A DNA stretch of 63,236 bases from the IMG/VR virus record IMGVR_UViG_3300045988_160579. The stretch is one strand, 5' to 3'. Positions 249-63,236 of this stretch are shown here, piece by piece. Below the pieces are notes generated by a model. That model did not search any database and had not been told where the DNA came from. It saw nothing but the letters and a program-made list of their open reading frames with translations. The stretch's first letter is position 1; each line of letters opens with the position of its first letter. Both the position numbers and the translations under genes were made by a program. The DNA is from a virus.

Positions 249-278
249 AACGCCATTTTTACCCTAAAAACACAAATT

Positions 279-6914: not shown

Positions 6915-7193
6915 TTAATCCGTAAACATATACACGGAAAGATCAACCTTTTCTATTTCGTCTGAAATTGTATCTCCATACATTGTTAGACACACCCGAT
7001 AACGGTCAATACTTCTTTGAATCTGTTGCAAGGTAGGTTTCTCGGGATATTCCGAACTGGCAAAAGTTACCAGTTCTTCACCATTCTCACTGGTACCAAC
7101 CACCCGGAAGTGATGACGTACAATCCAAGTTCCGTCCGGCTGTTGCTCGATAGGCTTAGCAATCCCACGCGGTAAGATATTTTTTTGATCCAT
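6915..7193 (-). CDS. hypothetical protein (92 aa) overlapping the RT 3' end
   Basis: ORF track. Overlaps the RT ORF by 38 nt. Confidence 0.45.
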   Translation of the reverse strand: MDQKNILPRGIAKPIEQQPDGTWIVRHHFRVVGTSENGEELVTFASSEYPEKPTLQQIQRSIDRYRVCLTMYGDTISDEIEKVDLSVYMFTD

Positions 7194-8577: not shown

Positions 8578-8591
8578 AATCCCCTTGGCGA

Positions 8592-8999
8592 TTATGACTC
8601 CGGCTTTGCGACTTGTTGCGATCCGTTAGCTTTTTGCCGTTGGAGATCTGCAACCGTTTTTTTGTACCAACCGGTACTTTGCTTACCGATGCTCTCTGCA
8701 AGCAGACAGATTTCGGCAGTTTGAGTCAGGCTGGTCAAATGTCGTTCTTCACACACTCTTAGCAGTAATTTCAATGCATCAAACTCACACAAAAACTTCA
8801 TCAGATAATCTGCACGATGCTCAAGGTTCATATCTGTATTTGCATAACGGATATATTCGCAACAATGAACGGCAAGCATCATCAACTCCGTACCAAATTC
8901 ATACCGGAACGCCTTGGGGAATTGTTGCCGGGCATCAATGATAAGGTTCAGAAGCTTATACATCGAATTTGATATAGGAAGGTCTTGTGTAAGTGCCAT
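8592..8999 (-). CDS. avd: Avd-like accessory variability determinant (four-helix-bundle protein)
   Basis: 135 aa. QFPKAFRYEFGTEL...IRYAN...YLMKFLCEFDALKLLLRVCEE...IGKQSTGWYKK fits the four-helix-bundle/Avd family. Located between the target gene and the TR. Confidence 0.75.
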   Translation of the reverse strand: MALTQDLPISNSMYKLLNLIIDARQQFPKAFRYEFGTELMMLAVHCCEYIRYANTDMNLEHRADYLMKFLCEFDALKLLLRVCEERHLTSLTQTAEICLLAESIGKQSTGWYKKTVADLQRQKANGSQQVAKPES

Positions 9000-9093
9000 G
9001 TTAATTTTTTAATATTTTAATGTATGTATTAGAGGGCGCAAAGTTAATAACTGTAAAGCAATTAACACAATTTTAGCTCAAAAAAGTGAAACT

Positions 9094-9117
9094 AAAAAGC
9101 CCCTACCGGGGCTTTTA
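9094..9117. terminator. symmetric hairpin between the VR gene and avd (terminator and/or DGR target-recognition hairpin)
   Basis: aaagcccc (9096-9103) pairs with ggggcttt (9108-9115) around a 4-nt loop, with an A-run and a T-run on either side. Sits 51 nt downstream of the VR end. Confidence 0.55.
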
Positions 9118-9145
9118 TTTAGCTAACTCTCTAAGGGATAAATAA

Positions 9146-9994
9146 TTAAAGGGATAAAGTGTTTATTGCGGCGAGGGGACGAACCCGGTACGCGCCCTGG
9201 CGGCTGTTCGTGCCGACGATGCCGTAGGAGAAGTACACGCTCCAACTGCTGGAAGCGTCATATTCGGTACTAGACCAATACCAGTCGTTTGTAAATATAT
9301 TTTGATTGCCAAACATAGAAGTTATGAGCTCATTGATTTCGGTTTTATACTTGGCCATAAGCATAAGTTCACCCAATGCGGGCAGGTTCCACACGGTTGT
9401 ATCTTCAATTCCGTCAGATTCAAGCGTACAGGCTTTATAGGCTCTGGCAACTTCGGCGGCAGGGGCGCCGACAGTTCCCTGGGTGTCCTTGACGCCTGCA
9501 AGGGTTTCTATTATAACATCGGTATTTTCCTTGCCGTCGAAGGTATCATAGAGTCCTTGGTTACCACTGCCGTAGTTTTTCAGGCCGCGTAGGTCGGTAC
9601 CGTAGCCACCCCATTTGAACGTTTTATTGCCGCCTGCGTCAACGCAGTCGCTTTTGGCGATAATGAACTGGTGGCATTCGGCGCGAAGTCGGATGCCGAT
9701 ACGGATATACTTGGAGCGATTATTCGCGCTCATGGAGTTCCATTCGGAAGCCGTGAAAAAGACTTGTTCACCGTCTTCAATCCGGAGCGTAGCCAAAGAA
9801 AGGTCAAGAAGCGTACCTGACCATTGCATATATTTGGCGATGTCGCTTGCGGGGGTGTTTTCATTCACGGTTGTAAAACCTATTGATTTTAAGGCTTCTA
9901 TCTGGTCTTGTTTATTCAAGCGCAGAAGCATGGCGTTGGCGATATTTTTATCCATTTTATTGTATAATATTAAGTTAATACTATTCGGAAGCAA
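9146..9994 (-). CDS. DGR target protein, fibre-tip protein with DUF1566/C-type-lectin-like C-terminus
   Basis: 282 aa. C-terminus WYWSSTEYDASSSWSVYFSYGIVGTNSRQGAYRVRPLAA carries the VR. Lies directly downstream of the giant fibre gene. Confidence 0.85.
   Translation of the reverse strand: MLPNSINLILYNKMDKNIANAMLLRLNKQDQIEALKSIGFTTVNENTPASDIAKYMQWSGTLLDLSLATLRIEDGEQVFFTASEWNSMSANNRSKYIRIGIRLRAECHQFIIAKSDCVDAGGNKTFKWGGYGTDLRGLKNYGSGNQGLYDTFDGKENTDVIIETLAGVKDTQGTVGAPAAEVARAYKACTLESDGIEDTTVWNLPALGELMLMAKYKTEINELITSMFGNQNIFTNDWYWSSTEYDASSSWSVYFSYGIVGTNSRQGAYRVRPLAAINTLSL
9168..9256 (-). repeat. DGR variable repeat (VR)
   Basis: See TR. Located in the last ~35 codons of ORF 9146..9994. The 3' 21 nt (ccgggttcgtcccctcgccgc on the coding strand) are A-free and identical to the TR (IMH-like). 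Confidence 0.9.
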
Positions 9995-10769
9995 CAGCTC
10001 TCACATGAAGAAGGGCTGAATTTTTGTTTTGATTCGTAATACGCCCGGTATTCAGTTCGAACGCCCAGGCGGAGTTAGTATCCCAAATTGTTGATGACCA
10101 GTAGTATTTATCAGTCATCAGCATACTGTCACTACTCCAAAAGGTACGCATCATCTCATTGATTTTATCGCGGTAGCGGTACATCAGAAGCATTTGGCCG
10201 GATGAAGGAAGGAACCAGTTGGATTCATCCTCGATACCGTCACTTTCCAAAGTGTAGGCACGGTATGCACGGGCGGCTTCGGCAGCCGGCGCACCGATTA
10301 CACCGCTATTGTTTTGGTCTTTCAGGCCGGTGATAATCAGGTCGGTATCTTCCTCACCCGTGAAGCAGCCGTACATGGCACCCAGTCCTTTTTGGTTCAG
10401 GCCGTCTATGGCTTTACCCTGACCGCCCCAATAGAAGGTAGTAGTCATATCGGCATTATAGCACTCCTGGGCGGCGATTACGAAGGAGTGTCCATGGGCA
10501 CGGATACGAAGCCCGCGTTTGATATACAGTTGCTTATTAGCGAGCGTAAGGGAGTTCCATTCGGCAGCAGTAAAGTATGCCTTGGAGTTATCCGAAATAC
10601 GATTACAGGCAAGATGCAGATCAAGCAGACCGGCGGCCCACTTGATACGTTGTCCAAATTCAGATGCGCGGGAATTCTCGGTGACATCCGAGAAGCCCAC
10701 GGCGTTCAGTGCTGCCACTTGTGCCTGTTTATTCAAGCGAAGCAGCGTTGCGCTTTGTTCATTCGTCAT
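9981..10769 (-). CDS. paralogous fibre-tip protein (DUF1566-like) without a recognisable VR
   Basis: 262 aa, collinear with the target protein (LLRLNKQ.Q..AL...GF ... APAAE.ARAY.A.TLESDGIED). C-terminus YYWSSTIWDTNSAWAFELNTGRITNQNKNSALLHVRAV has no nucleotide match to the TR. Confidence 0.8.
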   Translation of the reverse strand: MTNEQSATLLRLNKQAQVAALNAVGFSDVTENSRASEFGQRIKWAAGLLDLHLACNRISDNSKAYFTAAEWNSLTLANKQLYIKRGLRIRAHGHSFVIAAQECYNADMTTTFYWGGQGKAIDGLNQKGLGAMYGCFTGEEDTDLIITGLKDQNNSGVIGAPAAEAARAYRAYTLESDGIEDESNWFLPSSGQMLLMYRYRDKINEMMRTFWSSDSMLMTDKYYWSSTIWDTNSAWAFELNTGRITNQNKNSALLHVRAVASE

Positions 10770-39458: not shown

Positions 39459-39944
39459 TCACTTGAATTTCTTTTTTGGAAGAGATAACACATAGACAAG
39501 TGTCTTCCCTGAATTAATATTTTCATATTCCCAAAATGACAATTTCCCTTTAGTCGGTATCGGTTCTGGAAATAATATAGGATTGGCTAACACCCAATTA
39601 TAAATAGGATTTTCATAATGGCCTTTACTATTATCTGTTTTCTCCGCCCATTTAGAAGGATGATTGATAGAGCATCCAATTTTTTCTACACTTCCAATGA
39701 TAGCAGAATTGACAATGCCCTCTGCGCATATTATTTTTCGTTGAAACTCAACAGGCAGACTATCCCATTGAGCCTTTGTAAATACACTATTGGGATTTCT
39801 CATTTATACAGTTTTTCCACTTGCATGGATTAACACTTTATGCCCGATGTATTTCCATGGACACGCCCAAGTACGATTTTCGACATCCTTGATACCGTGG
39901 ACTATCAAAGAGGCCCACGGTTGTTTTATTGTTATTGCTTTCAT
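39459..39944 (-). pseudogene. ASCH-like gene split by an in-frame TAA (46-aa N-fragment plus 114-aa ORF)
   Basis: 39944..39807 encodes MKAITIKQPWASLIVHGIKDVENRTWACPWKYIGHKVLIHASGKTV. TAA (39806-39804) is followed directly by ATG (39803-39801) of ORF 39459..39803, in the same frame. Confidence 0.5.
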
Positions 39945-39945
39945 T

Positions 39946-39976
39946 TTTGTTTTATACAATTAATTTTATACTTTTG
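39946..39976 (+). promoter_or_regulatory. Bacteroides-type promoter of the plus-strand island
   Basis: TTTG (39946-39949), N19, TACTTTTG (39969-39976), 26 nt before ATG 40003. Confidence 0.55.
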
Positions 39977-41718: not shown

Positions 41719-42013
41719 AACAAGAAGAAAGTATATCATAACCCTTATAAATAGAAAATCACCCTCGTCACTTCATATTCCATGGCGAGGGTAACTTCAT
41801 TGAAAGGAGAATTATTTATTCGAAATTTCAGTTTTGATAGGATTCATTCCATCATTAAAGATAATCTCTGAACTTTTTTTCAGCAAGCTTTTCCATTTTC
41901 TCACCATTCATTCTTGCCATTCGTTCTATTTTAAGAAAATATGCTTCATCCACAACATAGGCGTTTGAATCAAATTTATATCTAAACTTTATTTCACTCA
42001 TTTTTTCTTGTAA

Positions 42014-42241
42014 TTAAAAAATAATCTCTGTAAACTCATATGAACTAAGTGCATTTTCCAAACTATCGAAAGAGTCAAATTCTCTTTTAATGCGTCCAAA
42101 CTGATATGAATACACTTCTTCACCTCGTTTACGCTCCATGCTAATAATATATCTGAAACCATCTTCCCGTGTAACTGTAACAGGATAACCTTCTGTTATA
42201 TTATCAATTATCTTTTGTTCGTTTAAAATCACTTTATTCAT
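42014..42241 (-). CDS. hypothetical protein (75 aa)
   Basis: ORF track. First gene after promoter cassette copy 1. Confidence 0.5.
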   Translation of the reverse strand: MNKVILNEQKIIDNITEGYPVTVTREDGFRYIISMERKRGEEVYSYQFGRIKREFDSFDSLENALSSYEFTEIIF

Positions 42242-42351
42242 AGTTCTATTTGTTATTTACATGTTTGACTTTTAATTATTTACTCCTATAAAGGTAATCA
42301 TTATTGACAAGTTTAACAAACAGAAACTTCGCCATTTTAACGCCATTTTCA
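42242..42351 (-). promoter_or_regulatory. repeated promoter/operator cassette, copy 1
   Basis: Minus-strand reading: AAAATGGCG x2 (42349-42341, 42338-42330), TTTG-N20-TACCTTTA, then the AAAAGTCAAAC box (42273-42263), 20 nt before the ATG. Confidence 0.55.
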
Positions 42352-43149: not shown

Positions 43150-43863
43150 CTATTTTTGTTGCATTTCACGTTTAAATCTTTCCTCTAAATCAAAAATGGT
43201 TTCTCCACTATTACGCCGATAGGGCCTATCGGTATTTAACTGAAGTTCTTTCAGCTTTTTCCAATACCATGGAAGGTACAAATACATATTCTTCAACTCC
43301 TTCAAGTTCTTATTTCCACAACACCAGCAACTCACACGATCAAGTAGCTCATATAGCCTTACTCCATCCTCATGCCAAACAAAGCCTTTTGTGTAACAAT
43401 ACTGGAGTGCATCTGCTTCAGTAATGCCCCAATCACGAAGTGGTAAAACCCGATTTGGTCGTTTTTCCTTTTCAAAGCGATGGGTCTCATCGGCAGCAAT
43501 ACCGACATAATCAATTCCGTCTTTTGTGTGAGCTTTCAATGTACGAAGTTTTTCACTCGTTCCCCACCGGCATGTTCCCCCACACCAACTATATCCTTTT
43601 TTATGGATAATATTGGTCCCTCTTTTCTTAACCGGCCTTTCAAACATTGTCCAAAGAAAAGGTTGCTCCGGATGCAGTTCTGTATATTTAATGCCAAGTT
43701 TTTTAAGAATTGGAAGAACAGCATCACGAGTGTTATAGATTGCCTGAAATTCCATACCTGTATCATAGAAAACGACTTCATCCAACTGATATCCTTTATC
43801 TATTAGCATGAAAAGCATTGCCAAGGAATCCTTTCCAAAGCTGACTGAAGCATAATATTTCAT
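43150..43863 (-). CDS. PAPS reductase-family / PP-loop ATPase protein
   Basis: 237 aa. N-terminal PP-loop ASVSFGKDSLAML, with Cys-rich SWCGGTCRWGT and VSCWCC motifs. Confidence 0.7.
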   Translation of the reverse strand: MKYYASVSFGKDSLAMLFMLIDKGYQLDEVVFYDTGMEFQAIYNTRDAVLPILKKLGIKYTELHPEQPFLWTMFERPVKKRGTNIIHKKGYSWCGGTCRWGTSEKLRTLKAHTKDGIDYVGIAADETHRFEKEKRPNRVLPLRDWGITEADALQYCYTKGFVWHEDGVRLYELLDRVSCWCCGNKNLKELKNMYLYLPWYWKKLKELQLNTDRPYRRNSGETIFDLEERFKREMQQK

Positions 43864-44000
43864 ACAAAAAATTTAATAGACAAGTCACTTTTTCTTCTTT
43901 GCCCTCTGATTATTAATCTGTGACATACACATACGGCACCAGGAAGTCAACAAATGATATTCCTTACCTTTTCTCACCACTATACGATTGTAGAACCGGT

Positions 44001-44210
44001 TCAAGTAGAAGTAATTCCGCAATGGGTACATTTTTTCATTTCACGTCCTGAATCATCTATAATCCGATTACGCGGCTTACGACGAATTAGAGTACAACTT
44101 TTACACTTCTCATCAGTTTCGCGGTGCCGCCGGCAATGTGGTAAGGATTTTGCTCCACATTTAGCAAACACTTTACAATCTCTACGAGGTATTGATTGAC
44201 ACACATTCAT
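44001..44210 (-). CDS. small Cys-rich hypothetical protein
   Basis: 69 aa with several CxxC-like pairs. 4-nt overlap with the upstream gene. Confidence 0.4.
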   Translation of the reverse strand: MNVCQSIPRRDCKVFAKCGAKSLPHCRRHRETDEKCKSCTLIRRKPRNRIIDDSGREMKKCTHCGITST

Positions 44211-44671
44211 GGCTTCCTCGCATTCAAGAATTTATTTACTACACGAGAAAGTACATCCTCATTCTCCGGCATCAGCCATTCTTTTGCAACGTTCCAAGCA
44301 ATACTCATAGCAGGATTGAAGTTATCCTTCCTGACTGTGTGATGAGACAAACGTCCTTCAGTGGGCTTCAAACCCTTATCATGTAAGATACACAGTCCAT
44401 TCTCGAAAAAAGCACAATACCCCTTACCAGCAACGGGCTGAATCATCGGAATAGCAATATTAATAACCCCTAAGAATATACCAGCAGCCCAGTTCGTCAG
44501 CGCTAACCTGTCGGCATAACCTGCATCAATAATTCGTTCAATATCATCAGGAGTACCTAAACATGGCGTATGACATTGTTGTTTACAAACACTGCATGAG
44601 CATTGTACAGGTACACGACCTGAAGCCCTCATTACCCTTTGTAATGAGGTTTCTTTTGATAATTCTCTCAT
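44207..44671 (-). CDS. cysteine-cluster protein (YkgJ/CxxCxxCC-like)
   Basis: 154 aa. CSCSVCKQQCHTPC and GYCAFFENGLCILHDKGLKP. Confidence 0.4.
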   Translation of the reverse strand: MRELSKETSLQRVMRASGRVPVQCSCSVCKQQCHTPCLGTPDDIERIIDAGYADRLALTNWAAGIFLGVINIAIPMIQPVAGKGYCAFFENGLCILHDKGLKPTEGRLSHHTVRKDNFNPAMSIAWNVAKEWLMPENEDVLSRVVNKFLNARKP

Positions 44672-44699
44672 AGTAAATTATTTGAGATACTACAAATTA

Positions 44700-45347
44700 T
44701 TAAACATCGCCCCACAGCTTTACTGCAAGGTCATAATTTTTTTTAGCCTCTTTTACTGCTTTATTGGCATAAGCCATAGCGTATGTATGCTCGCGTCGGT
44801 ACTTACCGGACTTCAATCCTTCGTGATATTCTTTTGCTTGTTCCAACTTATGTTCGTAGAAATCTATACTTTCCGGCATGGACAAGTTTATCGTATTAGC
44901 CCTTTTTTCCCAATACTTCGCAACTCTTTCATGTTCGGCAGCCTTATCGCTAAACTCAACGCTTTTCCCCATATTGTTCCACGCATCATCTATCGCTTTT
45001 CTGTGTCGCTTCTCGCTATGATGTCCCACTTTGATAGGCTCACCTAGAGAAAGAAAATCCTTATCTTTATTGGACTTGTTGTAATATTCACAGCTTTTCT
45101 GTACAGCAGATGTAGCCCATTCATGACGACGTTCAGCTCTTTGTTTGGCCCACTCTTGCACATTAAAGCCATCAGCCCGTACGATTGAGTAGTAATAGAA
45201 TCCATCACGTTCGTAAATGAGGTTGAAAACAATACATTCATTTTCTTTTCCATACTTGGTGGTAACTTCAATAGTTTCACCTTTTTCGTGCTTCTCATCA
45301 CACTTTGCCAAAAATACATTTGGCGCAAATTTGTAATACGTGTTCAT
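44700..45347 (-). CDS. DUF3560-like protein
   Basis: 215 aa. GEPIKVGHHSEKRHRKAIDDAWNNMGKSVEFSDKAAEHERVAKYWEKRA. Confidence 0.5.
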   Translation of the reverse strand: MNTYYKFAPNVFLAKCDEKHEKGETIEVTTKYGKENECIVFNLIYERDGFYYYSIVRADGFNVQEWAKQRAERRHEWATSAVQKSCEYYNKSNKDKDFLSLGEPIKVGHHSEKRHRKAIDDAWNNMGKSVEFSDKAAEHERVAKYWEKRANTINLSMPESIDFYEHKLEQAKEYHEGLKSGKYRREHTYAMAYANKAVKEAKKNYDLAVKLWGDV

Positions 45348-45395
45348 TTTTTTAATTAAATTGGTTTGACTTATATGAAAAATGAGAAACCACAG

Positions 45396-45971
45396 CTACT
45401 TAGCCGTGGTTTCATCATTAAATAACTTTGGTTGACTGGGTTGAACCAAATCATCGAATAAACCAGGAACACGAGGTTGTAACGCCTTGTATTCTTCCTG
45501 AAAGAATTCTTCTTTGGTTCTCCCATGTTTTTTACCCTTTCGTGTATGTACATCGAAAGTGTAATCTGGAATAGGAATAGGATAACGCCTGACATCATTT
45601 ATCCACTTTTCTATATCAATATCCTTTCTATCATAGATGAAGTTTTGCAAATGATCCGCATCACGATTCTTTCTACATTCACAAAGGAGAATGACAGCTT
45701 TACTCACAAATATCCTCCCTTTGGGTTCAGTAGCAACCTTGTTTACCAGCTCATGTCCCTGCCATAATGCTTCTATCTCTTTCGTAATGATTCCAAAACA
45801 GTCTTCAGCACTAATGGTAAACAAACGCTTCCACACATAGTCGCGGTACCCACTCGCCCAAAGTTCCAATGCAAAAAAGCCGGCTACCCCGGTGTCGGCT
45901 CGTCTAATGGCTTTCTGCATTGCAGAACTCACCTCAAAGAAATCATATCCGCAAATTGTTCTAATAATCAT
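45396..45971 (-). CDS. hypothetical protein with MgsA C-terminal-like helical motif
   Basis: 191 aa. FFEVSSAMQKAIRRADTGVAGFFALELWASGY. Confidence 0.4.
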   Translation of the reverse strand: MIIRTICGYDFFEVSSAMQKAIRRADTGVAGFFALELWASGYRDYVWKRLFTISAEDCFGIITKEIEALWQGHELVNKVATEPKGRIFVSKAVILLCECRKNRDADHLQNFIYDRKDIDIEKWINDVRRYPIPIPDYTFDVHTRKGKKHGRTKEEFFQEEYKALQPRVPGLFDDLVQPSQPKLFNDETTAK

Positions 45972-46075
45972 AATTCTAATTTAATGGTTTGACTTTTAAT
46001 TGATTACATCAGTAAAATTAGCTAAAAAAGACGAATATGGCAAACAGAATGGACACCATTTAAGCGCCTTTTTTA
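45972..46075 (-). promoter_or_regulatory. repeated promoter/operator cassette, copy 2 (degenerate upstream half)
   Basis: aattctaatttaatGGTTTGACTTTTAAT..ATTACATCAGTAAA is identical or near-identical to copy 4. TTTG-N20-TAATTTTA. The AAAATGGCG repeats are degenerate. Confidence 0.5.
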
Positions 46076-46082
46076 CAGACTA

Positions 46083-46835
46083 TTAGAATTTGAATTTGCA
46101 TGATATATTATATTGAACGAGCTGCTTTGTTTTGTCTTTCCCATTAGTGGTTGCACTCTTTAGCAAAATACTATCACCAAAATTCTTTTTGATAAAGAGG
46201 ATAGATTTACGTTCCTCTTCCTGATTCCTTATAGAAGCAAGCCCGCCAGCATTTACAAAAGTGTTCTTTTGCTCAAAATTATACCGCAAATCGGTTAAAA
46301 CCTTACGCTCTTTGTACTTCATATAACAAGAAATCCAAAAATCTTCCTTCAAACGTATTTCCTCGTTCCACCAGGTGTTTTTGTTATAGATTACTCCATA
46401 GCTACAACCGGTTATCATTTTCGAAAGAGAAAGAAAAGCAGATTCATCATACATTACCGGCGATATCCGAGCGGTGAAGCCAAACAGATGAACATCCATC
46501 ATACTGGCCATTTCATATAATGACTGAATGATGTTAGTTATCTTATCTTTATCCTTTATCCGGCTAGGTTCTCCTTTTTCCGCATAAATAGGTTTACAGG
46601 CATGGACATCATCATCGAGCATGAAGAGCTCACCAAAATGTTTCGCCATCCAATTACGTTTAGGGATGAGGCCGATTACATCGTCCGGATGAGTAACTAT
46701 TTCACATTCCGGGTTAAACTGCTGGTACAAGTCAGCTTGACTTTCGGCAACGCAAATGATAGGATCGTTCACCAACTTTTTAGCGAACACCCGGTCATGG
46801 CGTTTATGACTTGGTATTACTATCTTGCAGGGCAT
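46083..46835 (-). CDS. hypothetical protein, possible GT-A-like glycosyltransferase
   Basis: 250 aa. KIVIPSHKRHDRV near the N-terminus and FMLDDDVH (DxD-like). Weak assignment. Confidence 0.35.
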   Translation of the reverse strand: MPCKIVIPSHKRHDRVFAKKLVNDPIICVAESQADLYQQFNPECEIVTHPDDVIGLIPKRNWMAKHFGELFMLDDDVHACKPIYAEKGEPSRIKDKDKITNIIQSLYEMASMMDVHLFGFTARISPVMYDESAFLSLSKMITGCSYGVIYNKNTWWNEEIRLKEDFWISCYMKYKERKVLTDLRYNFEQKNTFVNAGGLASIRNQEEERKSILFIKKNFGDSILLKSATTNGKDKTKQLVQYNISCKFKF

Positions 46836-47460
46836 GGCGAACGTCTTTTATATCAATTACATTGGATTTACTTATTTTCCCGGTCTTGTACGACTTCATG
46901 TGCTGCATATCCAGCCTTTCACGAAGCCAGTTGCTATCTACCTCATTACTTGATGTGATGATAAACAACTCATGTTTTTCGTCATACTTTGGAATGAGAG
47001 GATAAATGGCTGTATCATCCGTAATGGTATCGAAGCGCTCTTTAAATTCATCCTCTTTCTTCTCTGGGGCAAATTCGATACCCCAGTCTTGGAGTTCCGC
47101 CTTATTCCACTCGTTTTCCATAACGTCCAAATCATTCTCACCAAAATTGACATTATCTTTAGTGGCATATTCCCTCAACTTCTTAACGGGGGTATCAGGT
47201 GCCAGGATTTTACAGGATAGTTCTTTATAACCTAACTCCTTGCAAGCTCGCAAACGTAAATTACCACAAACAACAATATATCTGCCATCATTGTAGGGAA
47301 AAACTATAAGTTCTCGAAGCTCAAGCATCTCTGGCGAATCCTGAATGCTTTTCTTCATCGCTTCAAAGCGGTAATCACGAAAAAAACGTGGATTTTTCGG
47401 CAATCCCGTGAGCTGCCCCTTATTAAAATCAAGTAGGCAGACTTGAATAATCTCTGTCAT
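46804..47460 (-). CDS. ParB N-terminal domain (nuclease-like) protein
   Basis: 218 aa. IVVCGNLRLRACKELGYKE matches the GxRRxRA ParB box. Confidence 0.6.
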   Translation of the reverse strand: MTEIIQVCLLDFNKGQLTGLPKNPRFFRDYRFEAMKKSIQDSPEMLELRELIVFPYNDGRYIVVCGNLRLRACKELGYKELSCKILAPDTPVKKLREYATKDNVNFGENDLDVMENEWNKAELQDWGIEFAPEKKEDEFKERFDTITDDTAIYPLIPKYDEKHELFIITSSNEVDSNWLRERLDMQHMKSYKTGKISKSNVIDIKDVRHALQDSNTKS

Positions 47461-49148: not shown

Positions 49149-50867
49149 CTAGGCTTCCTCTGTGTTATCGTTATTTAGCTCTTTCAGTCTTTCTTTGAGC
49201 TTCTTTTCTTTCTTATCATATGAATCCGCAAGTTTCTTAGAGAGCGCTTTGAAATCATCCGGATATTGTTCTGCAAAAAGGATTTTCTGACACTTTTGCA
49301 AATAGGAGTAGAAATTCACATTATTCGATGATAAGCATTCAGCAATAAAGGCTCTATACCATTGGTGTCGGTCAGCTTGGTTGTTTTTGACATAATTTAC
49401 AAAATCACTCTCACCATTCCATTTTTTCAAATTCAGTTTTTCAAGATAAGTACTGCTACAACCGCTAAGAACCAGCACATCAAAAACAAGTTGTTCATTT
49501 TCAGAGAATTCTTTTGTTCTCTGATAATATGTTTTCTCTTGCGCCCACTTACGCATTTCTTCAGCAGACTTCTCCTTGACTATATCCTTCGCTCTTTTTA
49601 ATTGGGCGTTTATTTTTTCCCTTTCTATCTCTTTTAGATCGGCAACGGCGGAAGTAGAGGAAGCCGTTTCTTTTCTAACATAATAGAAACTAACGTTAAA
49701 TTCGGGAGAATAATGTCCAAAAAATGAAAGACAACGATAAACTTCTCCATCTTCAAGCATTTTCAAAGTGCGTTCATCATCTTCTGAATACCAGCACTTA
49801 CATCTAAAGATTTCATCAGGATCAACTATTTCAAATCCAAGTTGTTTAACAGCTTCCAAAGTTTTTTCATAGAAAACCTTTCTATCTTCTCCCCAATATG
49901 TATCAGGACGTCTAGCGATAATTACTGTTTTTCCAAATGAAAGAGGTTCGCCAACTTTAACAAGATGTTCATATTCTAGTTGAATTTTCCGCGTCACATA
50001 AGCAATTTGTTTTTTCTCATAGCAAGCAGCATTGATACATCTAGCATCCTTACTATTCATTTCATAGAACAAACAACCATGATTACACGTATTATTCTCA
50101 CATTGAGAACATGATTTAATATCAGTATTTTCCCAATTATCGGAATCATCTTTAATCCAAGGTGCGTTACCAAGCTCCATGAAAGAATTACTCACAAATT
50201 CTCGAATCATAGCAGTAGTACATTGTTCTTCCTCCTCCTCATGAAACTCTTTTTGAGTATCTTCATCCAATTTAGAAAGAATCATAGCACCGGACAATGG
50301 TATATCTCCATTTCTTACCCGCTCTTTTAGTTCAGGAATAAGAGAATTCAATTTAATACGGTCAAATACAAACCGGGTAGACTTTCCTATTTTAAGAGCG
50401 ATATCTTCCAAAGTTCGTCCTTTTTCAGCCAACTGCGCAAAGGCAAAAGCTTCTTCGATGGGATCAACATCTTTTCTTTGAAGATTCTCGGTAATCATCG
50501 CTTCAAAAGCCTCATCATCTGTCATTTCTCTGACAATGCAGGAAATCGCTTGGAATTGTTCTGATTTCTTGCGATGTGCCTTGATTTTAGCAACATTCTC
50601 TTTATCTTCCTTCTCTTTCAATAGTGATACAGCACGGAAGCGGCGCTCACCACATACAATTTCATACGAACAGGGAATTGTTGTCACATCACCAGTCTCC
50701 AAGTTGGTCACATCCTCGGATTTGGCAACTCGAACAGTGATAGGCTGTAATAAGCCTTGTTTCTCAATATTACTTGCAAGCTCTTGAAGAGCTACTTCAT
50801 CAAAAGTCTTTCTCGGATTCAAAGGAGAAGGACTGATAAGGTCAATTCTAATGTTTTGTACTTCCAT
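49149..50867 (-). CDS. large ParB-family protein
   Basis: 572 aa. N-terminal IDLISPSPLNPRK...GLLQPITVR...VCGERRFRAV. Cys-rich middle region. Confidence 0.7.
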   Translation of the reverse strand: MEVQNIRIDLISPSPLNPRKTFDEVALQELASNIEKQGLLQPITVRVAKSEDVTNLETGDVTTIPCSYEIVCGERRFRAVSLLKEKEDKENVAKIKAHRKKSEQFQAISCIVREMTDDEAFEAMITENLQRKDVDPIEEAFAFAQLAEKGRTLEDIALKIGKSTRFVFDRIKLNSLIPELKERVRNGDIPLSGAMILSKLDEDTQKEFHEEEEEQCTTAMIREFVSNSFMELGNAPWIKDDSDNWENTDIKSCSQCENNTCNHGCLFYEMNSKDARCINAACYEKKQIAYVTRKIQLEYEHLVKVGEPLSFGKTVIIARRPDTYWGEDRKVFYEKTLEAVKQLGFEIVDPDEIFRCKCWYSEDDERTLKMLEDGEVYRCLSFFGHYSPEFNVSFYYVRKETASSTSAVADLKEIEREKINAQLKRAKDIVKEKSAEEMRKWAQEKTYYQRTKEFSENEQLVFDVLVLSGCSSTYLEKLNLKKWNGESDFVNYVKNNQADRHQWYRAFIAECLSSNNVNFYSYLQKCQKILFAEQYPDDFKALSKKLADSYDKKEKKLKERLKELNNDNTEEA

Positions 50868-50971
50868 AATTTAATTATATTGGTTTGACTTTTAATTCAT
50901 TACATCAGTAAAGTTATCGTAAAATAACAAGTTATGCAAACAGAAACTTCGCCATTTTAACGCCATTTTCA
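50868..50971 (-). promoter_or_regulatory. repeated promoter/operator cassette, copy 3
   Basis: AAAATGGCG x2 (50969-50961, 50958-50950), TTTG-N20-TAACTTTA, and the AAAAGTCAAACC box (50893-50882), 14 nt before the ATG. Confidence 0.55.
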
Positions 50972-56946: not shown

Positions 56947-57725
56947 TTTCTAGGAGGATACGTTTTCTGCATGTCAATAGTTATGTTTCTGAACTCCTTA
57001 TTATTGTGAAGTTCGGGATGTTCAGTCCAAACTCTCTCAAGCTCTTCGCGGCTTTTAACACCAGTCATTTGTTTAATTGCACGATCCAGGTCTACACCAG
57101 TATATACTTTGCCCGAAGCGTTTGAAGCAGAAACATTGGGAGCATATACTTTTTCCTTTGTATTACCATAAGCAAAACGAACGCGGTTTTTATTGTCCAC
57201 AATAACAAGTAAAATAATCTCCTTTTGCTCGTTATAACCAATCTCTTTTACACTGAATTTGGTGTATAGAGCAGGAGAACCTGTTTTGCTCTGATATATT
57301 TCATTTTTCTCAAGTGGAATCCAAATGAAAGGACCCGTATAAAGTTCACGCCCAATTCCCCAGTTAAATCCTGCACGTTTAAAGGCGTCCGAAGCCTGCC
57401 CTTTCTCTTTTTCTGTGCTAGATTCTGTCCCAACATCCTGTTTACTCACCCATTCCTTCTTTTCATTATCCCAAATGGACAACGTACAGAATAGATTCCC
57501 ATTAACGACATCATGGTGCCGTTTCCAGTTCATTTCTCCGAACACTTCATCAAGTATTCTCATGTCTACTCGAGCATCCTTGTATAATAGCAAGGAGCAG
57601 CCCGAACCGTCCGGTTTCATAGTACCAACCCTACATTCAATTTCAGAAGCTAGAAGCGGTCTGATAGAATTTTTCTTCTTCTCTTCATTCTGAACCGTTG
57701 ATACAGTGTTTTTTCTCGCTGTCAT
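56943..57725 (-). CDS. Rad52/Sak-like single-strand annealing protein
   Basis: 260 aa. MRILDEVFGEMNWKRHHD...GQASDAFKRAGFNWGIGRELY. Confidence 0.6.
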   Translation of the reverse strand: MTARKNTVSTVQNEEKKKNSIRPLLASEIECRVGTMKPDGSGCSLLLYKDARVDMRILDEVFGEMNWKRHHDVVNGNLFCTLSIWDNEKKEWVSKQDVGTESSTEKEKGQASDAFKRAGFNWGIGRELYTGPFIWIPLEKNEIYQSKTGSPALYTKFSVKEIGYNEQKEIILLVIVDNKNRVRFAYGNTKEKVYAPNVSASNASGKVYTGVDLDRAIKQMTGVKSREELERVWTEHPELHNNKEFRNITIDMQKTYPPRN

Positions 57726-57829
57726 AATTCTAATTTAATGGTTTGACTTTTAGCTCATTACATCAGTAAAGGTAATCGTTATTGACAAGTTTAGCAAACA
57801 GAAACTTCGCCATTTTAACGCCATTTTCA
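57726..57829 (-). promoter_or_regulatory. repeated promoter/operator cassette, copy 4
   Basis: AAAATGGCG x2 (57827-57819, 57816-57808), TTTG (57798-57795), N20, TACCTTTA (57774-57767), and the AAAAGTCAAACC box (57751-57740), 14 nt before the ATG. Confidence 0.55.
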
Positions 57830-57835
57830 GGTAGT

Positions 57836-57871
57836 AAAAACTGCCTGTACGATATTGTACAGGCAGAAAAA
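57836..57871 (-). terminator. strong terminator ending the tRNA-like RNA block
   Basis: ctgcctgtac (57841-57850) pairs with gtacaggcag (57857-57866), a 10-bp stem. The T-run on the minus strand is plus-strand aaaaa at 57836-57840. Confidence 0.7.
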
Positions 57872-57961
57872 TAAGAAAATGAATAATCCAATGTACCTTA
57901 TGGAACGGCTACGCTTTGAAGGGTGTACGGCTCCCTGATTTATACATAATGTAAATGCTAG

Positions 57962-58044
57962 TGGACGGAACCGGAGTCGAACCGGTCTCACGGAATATTG
58001 GTGCACCTCACCGCAGTTTCAACCAACGATATACATATCCGCCC
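57962..58044 (-). tRNA. tRNA-like RNA T1 (83 nt) without a canonical D or anticodon arm
   Basis: Acceptor GGGCGGA/TCCGTCC with G3-U70 and A73; T arm ACCGG-TTCGACT-CCGGT. The 49 nt in between contain GTTGGTT, but I found no 5-bp stem with a 7-nt loop. Confidence 0.4.
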
Positions 58045-58145
58045 GATTAATTAAAAAGGTGCACTATCTTCACAGACCATACACCCCAATCACAAACACA
58101 AAACAAAACTCATGAACTACTATAATTTAATTAGGATCAGAAGGG

Positions 58146-58212
58146 TGAATGGCGTGGGGATCGACCCCACATCACGCATATCTGCGTATGCTGCCAATTA
58201 CACCAGCCATCC
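58146..58212 (-). tRNA. tRNA-like RNA T2 (67 nt) with a tetraloop in place of the anticodon loop
   Basis: Acceptor GGATGGC/GCCATTC; D arm GTGT-AATTGGCA-GCAT; T arm GTGGG-GTCGATC-CCCAC. The anticodon position is occupied by ACGCA-GATA-TGCGT. Confidence 0.4.
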
Positions 58213-58439
58213 GTTTTAAGTGAACTATTCTCACGAACCATTCACCTAGAACACAAACACAAAATAAAACACGACATTAACTATTAAATAGCACTCTCAC
58301 GAGCTTCTTGCTTCCGGATAGCCGTTCAAAGCACACCGGAATAGTATAGAACAATTAAAACTCAAATAACAGGGGCTTTAACCCTACAGCGTCCTTTTCG
58401 CTGGCAACATTAGTTAAACATAAAAAGAAAAATTCTCTG

Positions 58440-58537
58440 TGAAGGAACCCGGACTCGAACCGGGATGATAGATTACCTATGTATGACTTTCTTCAATCTA
58501 TCTGCATACTTGCGTTTACCAATTCCGCCATTCCTTC
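58440..58537 (-). tRNA. class II (Leu-like) tRNA-like RNA T3 (98 nt) with a 19-nt anticodon loop
   Basis: Acceptor GAAGGAA/TTCCTTC; D arm TGGCGGAATTGGTAAACGC; variable arm ATAG-GTAAT-CTAT; T arm CCCGG-TTCGAGT-CCGGG. The GTATG/CATAC stem encloses CAGATAGATTGAAGAAAGT. Confidence 0.4.
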
Positions 58538-58629
58538 AGGTCGTAGCCAGACGCTTCCGGCTACATTGATTGTATATATAATGCAAATATATTTTCACCC
58601 TCACGGGTTACTTAACTCTGATTGAGTTG

Positions 58630-58700
58630 AGCCGGGAAACGGATTCGAACCGCTGACCTCATGTAGAAACATGCGCTCTGACCAACTGGGCTATCCCGGC
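58630..58700 (-). tRNA. tRNA-like RNA T4 (71 nt; Arg-UCU-like) with an anticodon arm 3 nt too short
   Basis: Acceptor GCCGGGA/TCCCGGC; D arm GCCC-AGTTGGTCA-GAGC; variable loop AGGTC; T arm AGCGG-TTCGAAT-CCGTT. The anticodon arm is only 14 nt (CATGT-TTCT-ACATG, or CATG-TTTCTA-CATG). Confidence 0.45.
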
Positions 58701-58762
58701 AGATGCCCGGCGAACCGGGCTAAATAAACATGACAAATACTAAAATTAAGCAATGCAGACCT

Positions 58763-58954
58763 TCACAGGCTATCTTTATTTTGTTTCCTATCTTCGTAGT
58801 ATCGAAAACAGATATAATTCACTGATACGACAGTCACCAATACAAAAGCAGCAATAAATTCTTTCTTGCTAACTTCAATGCTATCTATAAGATACAGTGT
58901 TGTCCATAAGGCAATGAACATCATGGCATACTGTATCACTTTAATCTTTTTCAT
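58763..58954 (-). CDS. small membrane protein (63 aa)
   Basis: Two hydrophobic helices. Followed by the gcccgg-cgaa-ccgggc hairpin (58704-58719). Confidence 0.4.
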   Translation of the reverse strand: MKKIKVIQYAMMFIALWTTLYLIDSIEVSKKEFIAAFVLVTVVSVNYICFRYYEDRKQNKDSL

Positions 58955-59208
58955 TTCTTCCGTTTTTTAGATTTAACTTTCCTTCCCGCACATCGGCAAT
59001 GAAGTAATACTTGAGCAGCATTACAATGCCACTTGCCGTTTTGGACATTAGTGGGCTTATCACTTTCAATCTTACCCGCTTCTATAAGATTCATCAATTT
59101 CTTTTCCCCACCCACATAATACGCAGACTTATCTTTTCCAAACGTTTCTGTAGAAAACAGACGGAGAATATTATCTAGCAATATTTCAGCCATTTCACCT
59201 CTGATCAT
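58951..59208 (-). CDS. hypothetical basic protein
   Basis: Track ORF extends to 59283; an internal start (MIRGEMAEILL) avoids overlap with the upstream ORF. Lys/Arg-rich tail. Confidence 0.4.
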   Translation of the reverse strand: MIRGEMAEILLDNILRLFSTETFGKDKSAYYVGGEKKLMNLIEAGKIESDKPTNVQNGKWHCNAAQVLLHCRCAGRKVKSKKRKK

Positions 59209-59225
59209 CTCAACAAGCAAGGTAG

Positions 59226-59456
59226 TTATGCAATTCTGGTTACTATAAACTGCATATTTTTTACATCTGACTTTGTTTTCCAAGCCATTCCTTCAGCTTT
59301 TTCTTTATAAAGCCGAGCATTCAATGTATTAGTTACAGACGGTTTCTGAACGATAGGAAATACTTCTATTGCACCAACATCCATACTCCGTAATACATCA
59401 ATTACGTTACGTCTCTGAATATCCTTTTCCATACAATCTAATTTTAAATTAAACAT
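59226..59456 (-). CDS. hypothetical protein (76 aa)
   Basis: ORF track. Starts 3 nt after the 3' end of the tRNA-shaped RNA T5. Confidence 0.4.
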   Translation of the reverse strand: MFNLKLDCMEKDIQRRNVIDVLRSMDVGAIEVFPIVQKPSVTNTLNARLYKEKAEGMAWKTKSDVKNMQFIVTRIA

Positions 59457-59458
59457 TG

Positions 59459-59592
59459 AAGCGATGAGCGGATTCGAACCGCCGACCTCTGCTTGTGGTG
59501 CTCTTCCGTTAAGCTAAGAGTATTTCTTGAGAGACTCGAACTCTCAACCATCCACCACACACAGCGCTCTAACCTGCCTGAGCTACATCACC
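59459..59592 (-). ncRNA. 134-nt tRNA-shaped RNA T5 with a 12-bp helix plus two hairpins replacing the anticodon loop
   Basis: GGTGATG-TA-GCTC-AGGCAGGTTA-GAGC-G-CTGTGTGTGGTG-[GATGG TTGAGAG-TTCGAGT-CTCTCAA GAAATA CTCTT-AGCTTAACGG-AAGAG]-CACCACAAGCAG-AGGTC-GGCGG-TTCGAAT-CCGCT-CATCGCT-T. Confidence 0.45.
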
Positions 59593-59866
59593 TTTATATA
59601 CATAAAGCAAATACCTCGATTTGCCGACAAACGTCTAACTGATTTAGTTTTACAACGATACGGCTTGACCATTAACCACAGCATTATATCGTTGAGAAGC
59701 CCGCCTACGTCAGTAATCCCTTTCGGCACGTGTCGGCTTCCAAAACACCATTTTACCAATATGTCAAAGAACTCTTCTCTGTTGTTCCCAGTCTCCCTTC
59801 AAGGGCAGGCTCAAAGACCGGACTGGGTACCGGATAACCGGCGGTTTGGTTTGACTTTAATGAGGG
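59593..59866 (-). ncRNA. ~270-nt structured non-coding leader upstream of T5
   Basis: No credible ORF. Multiple helices on the minus strand: CCCAGTC/GACTGGG, GAAGCC/GGCTTC, AACGATA/TATCGTT, GCAAAT/ATTTGC, GCCGACA/TGTCGGC. Starts with AAAGTCAAACC. Confidence 0.35.
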
Positions 59867-60412: not shown

Positions 60413-60484
60413 AATCGTTATTTTTTAATTGGTTTTATCAATCATTTTTTGTATGTTTGTATGATTGATTGATTTATGATGCAA

Positions 60485-60549
60485 ATATATCCTCAAATGT
60501 GGATATATAAAAATTAAAAACCTATTTTATATCACCATTTGTGGATATT
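60485..60549. promoter_or_regulatory. operator-like inverted repeats in the immunity switch region
   Basis: ATATATCC-N8-GGATATAT (60485-60508) and TATATCACC-N6-GGATAT (60526-60548). The TGTGGATAT half-site recurs at 60498 and 60540, 42 bp apart. Confidence 0.5.
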
Positions 60550-60565
60550 TAACTTTTGATTGATT

Positions 60566-60946
60566 ATGATAAACAGAATTAAAGAAGTAATAACCTATTC
60601 AGGGCTATCAGAGAGGGGATTTGCTATTAAGTGTGGATTAAAGCCCACAACTATTAATAATCAACTGATAGGAAAAAGAGAAATTAGCCTTGCAACAATA
60701 ATAGCAATTTCATCCTCATTTGAGGAAATTTCCGCTGAATGGTTGTTAAGAGGAACTGGTTCCATGCTCATTCAAAAAGAAGAAACAGAACCAGGAATGG
60801 ACAAATTGAAAAGTATTGTATATACCATAGCCAATTTGCAGGATGAAATCAATGAAAAGACAGTACTTACTCAACGCCTTTTGGAAGAAAACCAGAAATT
60901 AAAGGGTGAACTGGCTATGTTGAAGAACGAACGAAATATAGGATAA
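60566..60946 (+). CDS. HTH (XRE/CI-like) repressor with C-terminal leucine-zipper-like coiled coil
   Basis: Track ORF starts at TTG 60560; ATG is at 60566. IKEVITYSGLSERGFAIKCGLKPTTINNQLIGKREISLATIIAISSSF, then LLEENQKLKGELAMLKNE. Confidence 0.7.
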   Translation: MINRIKEVITYSGLSERGFAIKCGLKPTTINNQLIGKREISLATIIAISSSFEEISAEWLLRGTGSMLIQKEETEPGMDKLKSIVYTIANLQDEINEKTVLTQRLLEENQKLKGELAMLKNERNIG

Positions 60947-63034: not shown

Positions 63035-63129
63035 AAACGCACTATTTTAGTTTGACAATGCGCAAATATAATATTTAAAGTAATATAAAACATGAAACTC
63101 AAAAATCTTGATAGTACATAAAACAGCAA

Positions 63130-63149
63130 ATGGTCGAATTATGGTCGAA
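63130..63149 (+). promoter_or_regulatory. two direct ATGGTCGAA repeats, candidate integrase arm-type sites (right arm)
   Basis: atggtcgaa at 63130-63138 and 63141-63149 (11-bp phasing), the same motif and orientation as 163..248. Confidence 0.45.
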
Positions 63150-63174
63150 CCATAAAAAAAAGCAGGACTATATA

Positions 63175-63213: not shown

Positions 63214-63236
63214 GTCTAGTTTAGTTTTTGTGTTGA
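63214..63236. repeat. 23-bp terminal direct repeat, right copy
   Basis: Identical to 1..23. Confidence 0.85.

Follow-up and report, generated by a model that had tools for sequence, protein, structure and literature searches.

Four co-oriented cassettes of about 105 nucleotides (nt), each set directly ahead of a gene start, are best read as activator-dependent delayed-early or middle promoters with a conserved, unstructured leader in a BV01-like temperate phage; the probability of this reading is put at roughly 0.6. They lie in IMG/VR record IMGVR_UViG_3300045988_160579, whose 63,236 nt are called the window below. The sequence GTCTAGTTTAGTTTTTGTGTTG stands at both window ends (1-22 and 63214-63235), and the same conserved 22 bp form the attL/attR repeat of Bacteroides phage BV01 and the proposed family Salyersviridae (PMC8354205). 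Because it is bounded by this published att repeat, the window is one complete 63.2-kb BV01-like (Salyersviridae) prophage. Sequence comparison establishes the anatomy of the cassette, its family-wide conservation, its distinctness from the operators of the CI-like repressor and its position at mosaic junctions. That the cassettes act as promoters is highly probable, and that their upstream repeats serve activation rather than repression is slightly favoured. The four copies and their target genes, with protein lengths in amino acids (aa), are as follows.

42247-42351, minus strand: cassette copy 1, with repeats at 42341-42349 and 42330-42338, TTTG-N20-TAccTTTA at 42289-42320 and the leader motif at 42263-42273; its target is the ATG at 42239-42241 of a 75-aa gene, followed by a 48-aa gene.
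45971-46075, minus strand: cassette copy 2, with degenerate repeats AAAAAGGCG at 46065-46073 and TAAATGGTG at 46054-46062, TTTG-N20-TAatTTTA at 46013-46044 and the leader motif at 45987-45997; its target is the ATG at 45969-45971 of a 191-aa gene.
50867-50971, minus strand: cassette copy 3, with repeats at 50961-50969 and 50950-50958, TTTG-N20-TAacTTTA at 50909-50940 and the leader motif at 50883-50893; its target is the ATG at 50865-50867 of a 572-aa ParB_N/HTH_ParB gene.
57725-57829, minus strand: cassette copy 4, with the distal repeat at 57819-57827, the proximal repeat at 57808-57816, TTTG at 57795-57798, TAccTTTA at 57767-57774 and the leader motif AAAAGTCAAACC at 57740-57751; its target is the ATG at 57723-57725 of a 260-aa Rad52-like single-strand annealing protein (SSAP), followed by a PD-(D/E)XK exonuclease, SSB and a helicase array.

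These copies are the largest repeat family of the window, with 67-85% identity to the reference copy in a repeat search, and they align over about 105 nt at a mean column identity of 80%. A profile built from related cassettes recovers exactly four in the window (nhmmer E = 3e-31, 7e-29, 3e-24 and 6e-16) and finds no fifth there at E<1e-3. The original prediction had located them correctly to within 1-5 nt, and its statement that each copy adjoins the ATG of a minus-strand gene (75-aa, 191-aa, ParB and SSAP) holds, with the whole intergenic gap filled in every case. The first repeat overlaps the stop codon of the preceding gene in copies 1 and 3 (TGA-AAATGGCG; for copy 3 this is a 73-aa gene). 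The multiple alignment proposed as a check keeps the boxes in register across all four copies.

Read on the minus strand, the cassette opens with two 9-bp repeats. The perfect tandem AAAATGGCG-NN-AAAATGGCG is present in copies 1, 3 and 4, and copy 2 has, as had been noticed, a degenerate form (AAAAAGGCG-CT-TAAATGGTG) in the same 11-bp register; about 2e-6 occurrences of the 18-base tandem pattern are expected in 63 kb, against three found. The spacing TTTG-N20-TAnnTTTA, claimed for all copies, is indeed kept in four of four. The looser pattern TTTG-N19-21-TAnnTTTR matches the window nine times against 3.6 expected, and four of these nine matches are the cassettes. The proposed leader arrangement of AAAAGTCAAACC, 14 nt and ATG stands for copies 2-4 and fails for copy 1, which carries AAAAGTCAAAC and then 21 nt to its ATG, a longer leader. 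A miniature inverted-repeat transposable element or transposon was considered and rejected: orientation is constant, the position is always at a gene start and, in Bacteroides genomes, the cassette occurs only inside prophages. No terminal inverted repeats or target duplications are seen by eye in the aligned copies, for which no inverted-repeat search was run. Replication-origin iterons were also rejected, the repeats being pairs spread over 15 kb and each tied to a promoter.

The cassette is widespread among relatives. A scan of IMG/VR with the 18-base tandem pattern gave at least 113 loci; nearly all pattern matches, among those listed, carry the whole cassette, on more than 110 IMG/VR contigs, and a contig with a BV01-type att (…GTGTTGTAA) also carries one (L274 and L061, the same contig). 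In species-representative genomes, the pattern stands beside a promoter-like box in seven fetched loci, the named ones belonging to Bacteroides (e.g. B. xylanisolvens XB1A and Bacteroides sp. KFT8), and variants occur in one further Bacteroides metagenome-assembled genome (MAG) and one Porphyromonadaceae MAG. Most genome-wide pattern matches outside Bacteroidales are chance or unrelated tandem arrays. Tandems of AAAATGGCG with an 11-bp period are seen in unrelated genomes (L192, L115/L116, L137, L131, L158), among them a Muribaculaceae MAG with at least four units, a Lachnospiraceae MAG with five units and another Muribaculaceae MAG where a tyrosine integrase gene is immediately followed by a pair; such units could be arm-type or iteron sites belonging to other elements, or could have arisen by chance. 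In the searchable literature, no description of promoters of BV01-like phages or of the cassette was found, and a search for the motif returned chance primer-type matches only.

A profile search of the fetched loci yielded 175 copies, 169 of them with enough flank to use. Related cassettes are always co-oriented and just ahead of an ATG, before at least 25 different gene starts, among them those of alternative recombinases that take the place of the SSAP downstream of an identical copy 4. The tandem AAAATGG(C/T)G stays at a fixed 9 nt from TTTG in the four window copies and the 169 usable related ones. In a non-redundant set of 25 copies (<90% identity), the conserved blocks are the AAAATGG(C/T)G tandem at 11-bp phase, AAG-TTCTGTTTGC, TAnCTTTAC, GATGTAA and AAAAGTCAAACC, while the 20-nt spacer, the inter-repeat dinucleotide and the flanks vary. 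The proximal repeat AAAATGGCG is near invariant and the distal one more degenerate (A-GGCG or GGTG); TTCTGTTTGC is kept in relatives, with a few ATTG variants. The elements first picked out in the window alone (the 9-mers, the -33 TTTG, the 20-nt spacing, TAnnTTTA and the AAAAGTCAAACC leader) are thus the ones constrained in relatives. Since the boxes are fixed while spacer and flanks vary, this footprint fits a functional leader and a working promoter that has a protein site upstream of it.

The repeats might act without any phage protein, their phased A-tracts (AAAA per 11 bp) forming a UP-element-like or bent-DNA enhancer, or the 9-mers binding a host factor. The repeats fill -45 to -65, where UP elements act, and an A4 tract opens each of them at a phase of about one helical turn. 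However, conservation is as high in the G/C-rich half (GGCG, with GGTG as the only change) as in the A-tract, a hint of base-specific recognition; in species-representative genomes the pattern with a promoter-like box occurs only in prophage cassettes and not at host promoters; and silence in the lysogen, considered below, would stay unexplained. Such an enhancer or host-factor site is very unlikely.

The cassettes also coincide with breaks in phage mosaicism. When the 300-nt flanks of every related cassette are compared with the window, many loci are near-identical to it on one side and unrelated on the other, and the change falls at the cassette. Only the upstream flank of copy 1 is shared in 19 loci and only that of copy 4 in 12; a flank from position 43.3 kb of the window is joined directly to a cassette in eight, and only the downstream flank of copy 3 is shared in seven. 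By this comparison the cassettes mark mosaic junctions. Recombinant cassettes are seen too: L019 combines the flanks and leader of copy 4 with the spacer of copy 3, and in L056 (IMGVR_UViG_3300029675_000169) the upstream flank of copy 4 (99% identical to the window) leads through a cassette into the 191-aa gene of copy 2. The L056 arrangement equals loss of a ~11.7-kb block with the recombination, replication and ParB genes. Either cassette-to-cassette recombination produced it, as a defective deletion variant, or it is an assembly chimera, and single mosaic cases at a repeat may in general be assembly chimeras.

These break-points and the chimeric cassettes (L019, L056) are what would be expected if the likeness of the copies were an evolutionary by-product, i.e. 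an intergenic joint spread by recombination, as a mobile regulatory cassette or through gene conversion, with no common regulator. The position-specific footprint is left unexplained in that case: the spacer drifts, whereas the repeats, the -33 and -7 boxes and the leader are fixed even where neighbouring proteins share only 52-62% identity. Spread by recombination is compatible with a functional role and becomes a rival only if function is denied, and in that strict form it is extremely improbable.

The class of promoter is best judged beside the lysogeny switch of the same prophage, which comprises two features.

60566-60946, plus strand: CI-like HTH_3 gene.
60413-60565: switch region between the CI-like gene (plus strand) and the first early gene (60412, minus strand), with palindromic operators and the early promoter.

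The Bacteroidota housekeeping promoter was reportedly defined by Bayley and colleagues in 2000 as a -33 TTTG and a -7 TAnnTTTG. The cassettes share with it TTTG, the 20-nt spacing and T-12, A-11, H-10, H-9, T-8, T-7 and T-6, in the four copies and in relatives, but they end the -7 box in A and not in the nearly invariant G. In Bacteroidota promoters T-12, A-11, T-8, T-7, T-6 and G-5 are nearly invariant and -10/-9 are H, never G, giving TAHHTTTG (PMC6847099). The final A occurs in all four copies and in 25/25 non-redundant relatives; the immediate-early promoter has TAnnTTTG in all of 19 switch regions, including the consensus -7 box TATATTTG of the window. On this sequence evidence, the cassettes and the immediate-early promoter are two promoter classes within the same phages, and the A at -5 would represent a deliberately weak core that needs help.

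In the window the CI operators are ATATCCACAAATGGTGATAT and ATATCCACATTTGAGGATAT (palindrome ATATCC-N8-GGATAT), and they overlap the core of the early promoter. Operator type tracks CI type across at least eight types, with CI identities of 40-99%, while the cassette repeats are unchanged. The CI-like repressor was therefore rejected as binder of the repeats: its operators are other palindromes that covary with CI, and the repeats stay the same. The region 60413-60565 behaves as a modular immunity region in relatives (L001, L011, L013, L033, L043, L058, L069, L074), where each CI type has its own palindromic operator pair on an otherwise conserved early promoter (…TAnnTTTGCATCATAAATCAATCAATCA).

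With the -7 box as reference, the centres of the two repeats fall at about -50 and -61, on the upstream side of -33. Because the last base of the -7 box is off consensus in every copy and the repeats are centred there, an activator is favoured over a repressor. BV01 lysogens are largely transcriptionally repressed, and the repressor is their most expressed gene (PMC8354205); the contig with the BV01-type att (L274/L061) has the cassette. Near-consensus promoters without CI operators are thus apparently silent in the lysogen. This silence of the cassette promoters fits activator dependence; a second repressor is also compatible with it.

In that second-repressor scheme, the cassettes would be strong constitutive promoters of the host type, and the repeats would be operators for a second lysogeny repressor or a late shut-off factor silencing the four units, much as stoperators work in cluster A mycobacteriophages. 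The near-consensus core (TTTG, 20-nt spacer, TAHHTTT) and the largely silent BV01 prophage (PMC8354205) agree with it, and a protein bound at repeats that overlap the end of the upstream gene could block read-through too. Yet the sites lie at about -45 to -65, clear of the -33/-7 boxes and the start, where the CI operators do lie, and those operators, unlike the repeats, differ in sequence and covary with CI. The genes downstream of CI (192 aa and 268 aa) have no homologues in the related loci, so the lysogeny module offers no conserved candidate, and the A at -5, invariant and off consensus, indicates that basal promoter activity is weak (PMC6847099). A repressor acting through the repeats is on balance unlikely.

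Transcription units provide further evidence, and one terminator is central to it.

57841-57866, minus strand: intrinsic terminator with a 10-bp stem, six G-C pairs and a T-run, which ends the immediate-early unit just upstream of copy 4.

Among the four copies, only copy 4 is preceded by a terminator; copies 1-3 adjoin the upstream stop codon without a hairpin. The same hairpin also stands ahead of copy-4-type cassettes in relatives. Because this terminator lies directly upstream, the SSAP array can be transcribed only if RNA synthesis starts anew at copy 4. The other strong terminator on the minus strand is at 45386-45413, after the 191-aa gene, and no strong terminator was found between copies 4 and 3 or between copies 3 and 2. 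The cassettes are therefore mostly internal promoters of one long co-directional array. The original prediction of four operons controlled through one DNA-binding protein is accordingly supported with a qualification: several units under one regulator fit the data, whereas four insulated operons do not. A hairpin with a T-run is also visible by eye near 41790, beyond the 48-aa gene.

Two ParB-family genes of the array have to be considered as sources of the binder.

49149-50867, minus strand: 572-aa ParB-family gene.
46804-47460: 218-aa ParB-family gene.

Their products might use the repeats as global regulators or as dispersed centromere-like sites, like KorB of RK2 or SopB of N15; ParB sites dispersed in promoter regions are known for N15 and RK2. 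One cassette stands directly ahead of the large ParB gene, which makes autoregulation possible, and a cassette precedes ParB in distant relatives too (e.g. L316). The repeats are, however, short 9-bp direct repeats and not palindromes of the parS/OB type (~13-16 bp), an element with an integrase and att sites needs no partition system, and the ParB helix-turn-helix (HTH) is only 54-63% identical in phages with identical proximal repeats. ParB moreover sits behind copies 4 and 3 and cannot start a cascade past the terminator at 57841-57866. A ParB protein is a most improbable binder.

The leader completes the conserved unit. Bacteroidota sigma-A promoters start transcription about 5 nt beyond the -7 element; the motif GATGTAA is conserved at this expected start position, and transcripts are predicted, from sequence, to start within it. 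From there an A-rich leader of about 40 nt, which carries AAAAGTCAAACC, runs to the ATG. Folding z-scores of -1.2 to +1.8 indicate no conserved fold, and a structured RNA or riboswitch was rejected, since the leader has no consistent fold and no Rfam match. A start-stop mini open reading frame (ATG-TAA) within GATGTAA was also rejected, relatives carrying GACGTAA or GATATAA instead. Position -3 is A in the four window copies, as expected for Bacteroidota initiation without a Shine-Dalgarno sequence (PMC6847099). One partial copy separates the leader from the rest of the cassette.

45348-45374, minus strand: leader-only partial copy ATAAGTCAAACCAATTTAATTAAAAAA-ATG before the DUF3560 gene and directly after the terminator at 45386-45413, lacking repeats and promoter boxes.

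Because this promoter-less copy precedes DUF3560, the AAAAGTCAAACC block is probably a start-associated signal (translation or mRNA) that is separable from the promoter. Two minus-strand places have the leader motif AAGTCAAACC but no promoter: within 45348-45374, 16 nt before the DUF3560 ATG, and at 59849-59859, after the stop of a 78-aa early gene and ahead of a G+C-rich non-coding stretch (59600-59850).

Since the first cassette follows a terminator, an activator of the cassettes must come from the immediate-early unit (60412 to 57867). Within this unit, one gene is the leading candidate.

58951-59208, minus strand: gene for an 85-aa immediate-early protein with a predicted winged-helix, MerR-Xis-like fold and a basic tail; candidate binder of AAAATGGCG.

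Twenty-four relatives with at least 3 kb upstream of the first cassette are informative here, and the only immediate-early products present in 24/24 are CI and the 85-aa protein. The latter is the best conserved early product, at 64-100% identity vs 40-99% for CI; the 97-, 78-, 76- and 63-aa products are 35-100% identical or absent. Its homologues, from Bacteroides and Paramuribaculum, bear no annotation beyond "hypothetical protein". Five loci (three distinct phage types, including Paramuribaculum) were reached via 52-62% homologues, and all five have a cassette 0.7-1.6 kb downstream; their repeats are AAAATGGTG/AAAATGGCG, TTAAGGCG/AAAATGGTG and AAAATGGTG/AAAATGGTG, variants of AAAATGG(C/T)G. 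Pfam and PHROGs searches of the small early proteins detect a DNA-binding family only in CI (HTH_3) and in an HNH/sigma-r4-like 254-aa protein, which occurs in some relatives only.

The alignment of the 85-aa family has a winged-helix-typical pattern (…SAxIVGG-KKL--LIE-GKI…QNGKW-CNAAQVL) followed by the basic tail, and an AlphaFold2 model reaches a mean predicted local distance difference test (pLDDT) score of 84. The best Foldseek match in the PDB is the excisionase of mycobacteriophage Pukovnik (4j2n_A; probability 0.82, TM 0.66 by target length, root-mean-square deviation 2.7 Å, E=0.74), and the top BFVD matches are HTH, MerR-like HTH, Excise and the pyocin activator PrtN (probabilities 0.9-0.99, E 0.1-0.4). 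Proteins of the Xis/Cox type recognise direct repeats that are arranged head to tail at a distance of about one turn, and a number of them double as transcription activators, e.g. P2 Cox and PrtN. On this circumstantial evidence, the 85-aa protein is tentatively proposed as the binder of the repeats, at somewhat less than even chances.

A plain excisionase role with sites at att was considered for the 85-aa protein and is not supported: the lone other exact 9-mer in the window (251-259, minus strand, beside the arm repeats) is missing in relatives whose integrase is of another type. The att-arm repeats themselves (ATGGTCG, TTCTTGTCC, TATTGCCG, ATTGTCGGAC) are Int arm sites because they covary with the integrase. 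Arm-type tandems with 11-bp phasing lie beside att (160-250 and 63128-63150; loci L235-L313), as ATGGTCG-N4-ATGGTCG in the window; arm repeats vary with integrase type (TTCTTGTCC, TATTGCCG, ATTCCA, ATTGTCGGAC), and the 22-bp att core is constant.

A coherent sequence of events can be proposed from these observations. On loss of the CI-like repressor, the immediate-early promoter (TAnnTTTG, with CI operators) would fire, and its transcript would stop at the 57841-57866 terminator. One immediate-early product would then bind the tandem repeats and recruit host RNA polymerase to the cassette promoters, which would be intrinsically weak owing to A in place of the near-invariant G at -5. This step would turn on the recombination/replication array, the ParB/DNA-modification array, the 191-aa gene and the 75-aa/48-aa pair. 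Each cassette would in effect be a self-contained expression unit, combining a head-to-tail pair of 9-bp protein sites, spaced by one turn, with a host sigma-A-type promoter and a leader; as a conserved unit at gene-module borders, it could also act as a joint for module exchange between phages.

Several points weigh against this account. Perfect repeats are not essential, because copy 2 is degenerate yet conserved, its degenerate repeats themselves being kept in 36 related loci. Bacteroides sigma-A might tolerate the A at -5; the promoters could then be constitutive, and the repeats could bind a repressor. The block from DUF3560 to a 106-aa gene, behind the terminator at 45386-45413, has the leader motif only and no cassette promoter; the cassettes therefore do not account for all middle transcription. 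For the 85-aa protein, the Foldseek E-values (0.1-0.7) are not significant, Pfam finds no domain even at E<=10, and a profile search against PDB sequences finds only a Fis-type HTH at E=0.5; its co-occurrence with the cassette may reflect a shared syntenic phage backbone. The function of the cassette as a whole is, for this phage, one that we infer from sequence.

The proposed regulation falls within a known type of phage regulation and introduces no new principle. Activator-dependent phage and pyocin promoters with upstream repeats include PrtN and the P-box of Pseudomonas pyocin operons, the 9-bp cox-boxes of P2 Cox at P4 PLL, Mu Mor/C and the T4 MotA boxes. As in those systems, a small early protein of phage type would read a short motif upstream of dispersed promoters and switch on the next temporal class. 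The head-to-tail direct repeats about one turn apart recall Cox/Xis-type sites in particular, and the candidate 85-aa protein finds its best structural matches among PrtN-, MerR- and Xis-like proteins, at E-values short of significance. The cassette differs in its Bacteroides host with -33/-7 promoters, its unrelated motif, the retention of whole promoter and 5' leader as a 105-nt unit, and a binder that is only a candidate and has no Pfam family.

Two further comparisons concern the form of the cassette. The promoter-early stem-loop (PeSL) elements of T4-type phages, reportedly described by Arbiol and colleagues in 2010, are mobile regulatory cassettes made of an early sigma-70 promoter and a stem-loop terminator. 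Like them, the present cassettes are repeated, promoter-bearing intergenic units at gene-module borders or shuffling break-points; unlike them, they have a hairpin upstream of copy 4 only, carry activator-type repeats and a translation leader, and belong to a temperate phage. The start-associated sequences (SAS) and extended SAS (ESAS) of cluster K mycobacteriophages, and the stoperators of cluster A, which are operator copies for the immunity repressor, are likewise short motifs of one orientation in intergenic gaps beside start or stop codons. AAAAGTCAAACC-N14-ATG resembles SAS in being start-associated, the promoter-less copy at 45348-45374 included. The CI operators here, in contrast to stoperators, are other sequences that covary with CI, and sequences, hosts and copy number (4-5 here vs 11-30 there) differ from both SAS and stoperators.

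The prophage around the cassettes has a simple layout. A tyrosine integrase gene lies at the left end of the window, and the minus strand holds nearly all genes other than the CI-like one. The minus-strand stretch from 60412 to 41800 opens with small immediate-early genes and a tRNA-like array. It continues with replication and recombination genes (Rad52-like SSAP, PD-(D/E)XK exonuclease, SSB, NinB-like, helicase, NinG and DUF6291), the 572-aa ParB_N/HTH_ParB protein and an HNH endonuclease with an N-terminal regulator-like domain. A ParB-like nuclease, a TET-associated glycosyltransferase, the 191-aa protein, DUF3560, a PAPS-reductase-like protein and small genes are also encoded in it. Megablast of 20 kb of the window against 50,697 phage records gave no match, and tblastn with ParB gave matches all below 60% identity.

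Other features of the window are worth recording. The genes at 43150-47460 (minus strand) form a probable DNA-modification module (TET-associated glycosyltransferase or TAGT, ParB-like nuclease-domain protein, DUF3560 and PAPS-reductase-like), a content which suggests that the phage DNA is hypermodified. A complete diversity-generating retroelement at 7156-10769 (minus strand) comprises a reverse transcriptase (RVT_1), the bAvd accessory protein and two Lcl_C (C-type-lectin-like) targets; in its 91-nt pair of template repeat (TR, 8409-8499) and variable repeat (VR, 9166-9256), all mismatches fall on A of the template copy. Between 39840 and 41718, the lytic gene array contains an insert on the opposite (plus) strand, with genes for a 171-aa protein and a 347-aa trypsin-like peptidase. 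The insert has its own consensus promoter (TTTG-N19-TAnnTTTG, 39946-39976), apparently interrupts an ASCH-like gene (~39459-39959) and resembles a moron that the prophage expresses.

The tRNA-like gene array occupies 57900-59600 (minus strand) within the immediate-early unit. Two tRNAs are clear (58630-58700 and 58440-58537), and a third tRNA-like match (59459-59592) reaches the Rfam gathering score in the whole-window scan and gives sub-threshold fragments only in a local scan. ARAGORN finds one tRNA, for which the anticodon is given as two bases. T-arm-like sequences at ~57960-58045 and ~58130-58215, uncalled by the tools, are flanked by a 51-nt direct repeat (58059-58109 / 58220-58270).

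Of the temperate phages found in human gut Bacteroides and Phocaeicola, the BV01-like group is one of the most widespread. How these phages are induced and run their lytic programme is still called enigmatic (PMC8354205). A more general switch can be proposed: all Salyersviridae, of any CI type, would share one middle-gene control, in which the 85-aa Xis/MerR-like protein acting on AAAATGG(C/T)G activates a portable 105-nt cassette that is also a homology patch for swapping replication, recombination and DNA-modification modules. In this full form the proposal is doubtful. The cassette would map the step after repressor loss onto four defined promoters, a 20-bp candidate activator site and one named candidate gene, and it would serve as a compact phage-inducible expression part for Bacteroides engineering. 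It also accounts for where mosaic joints fall in Salyersviridae.

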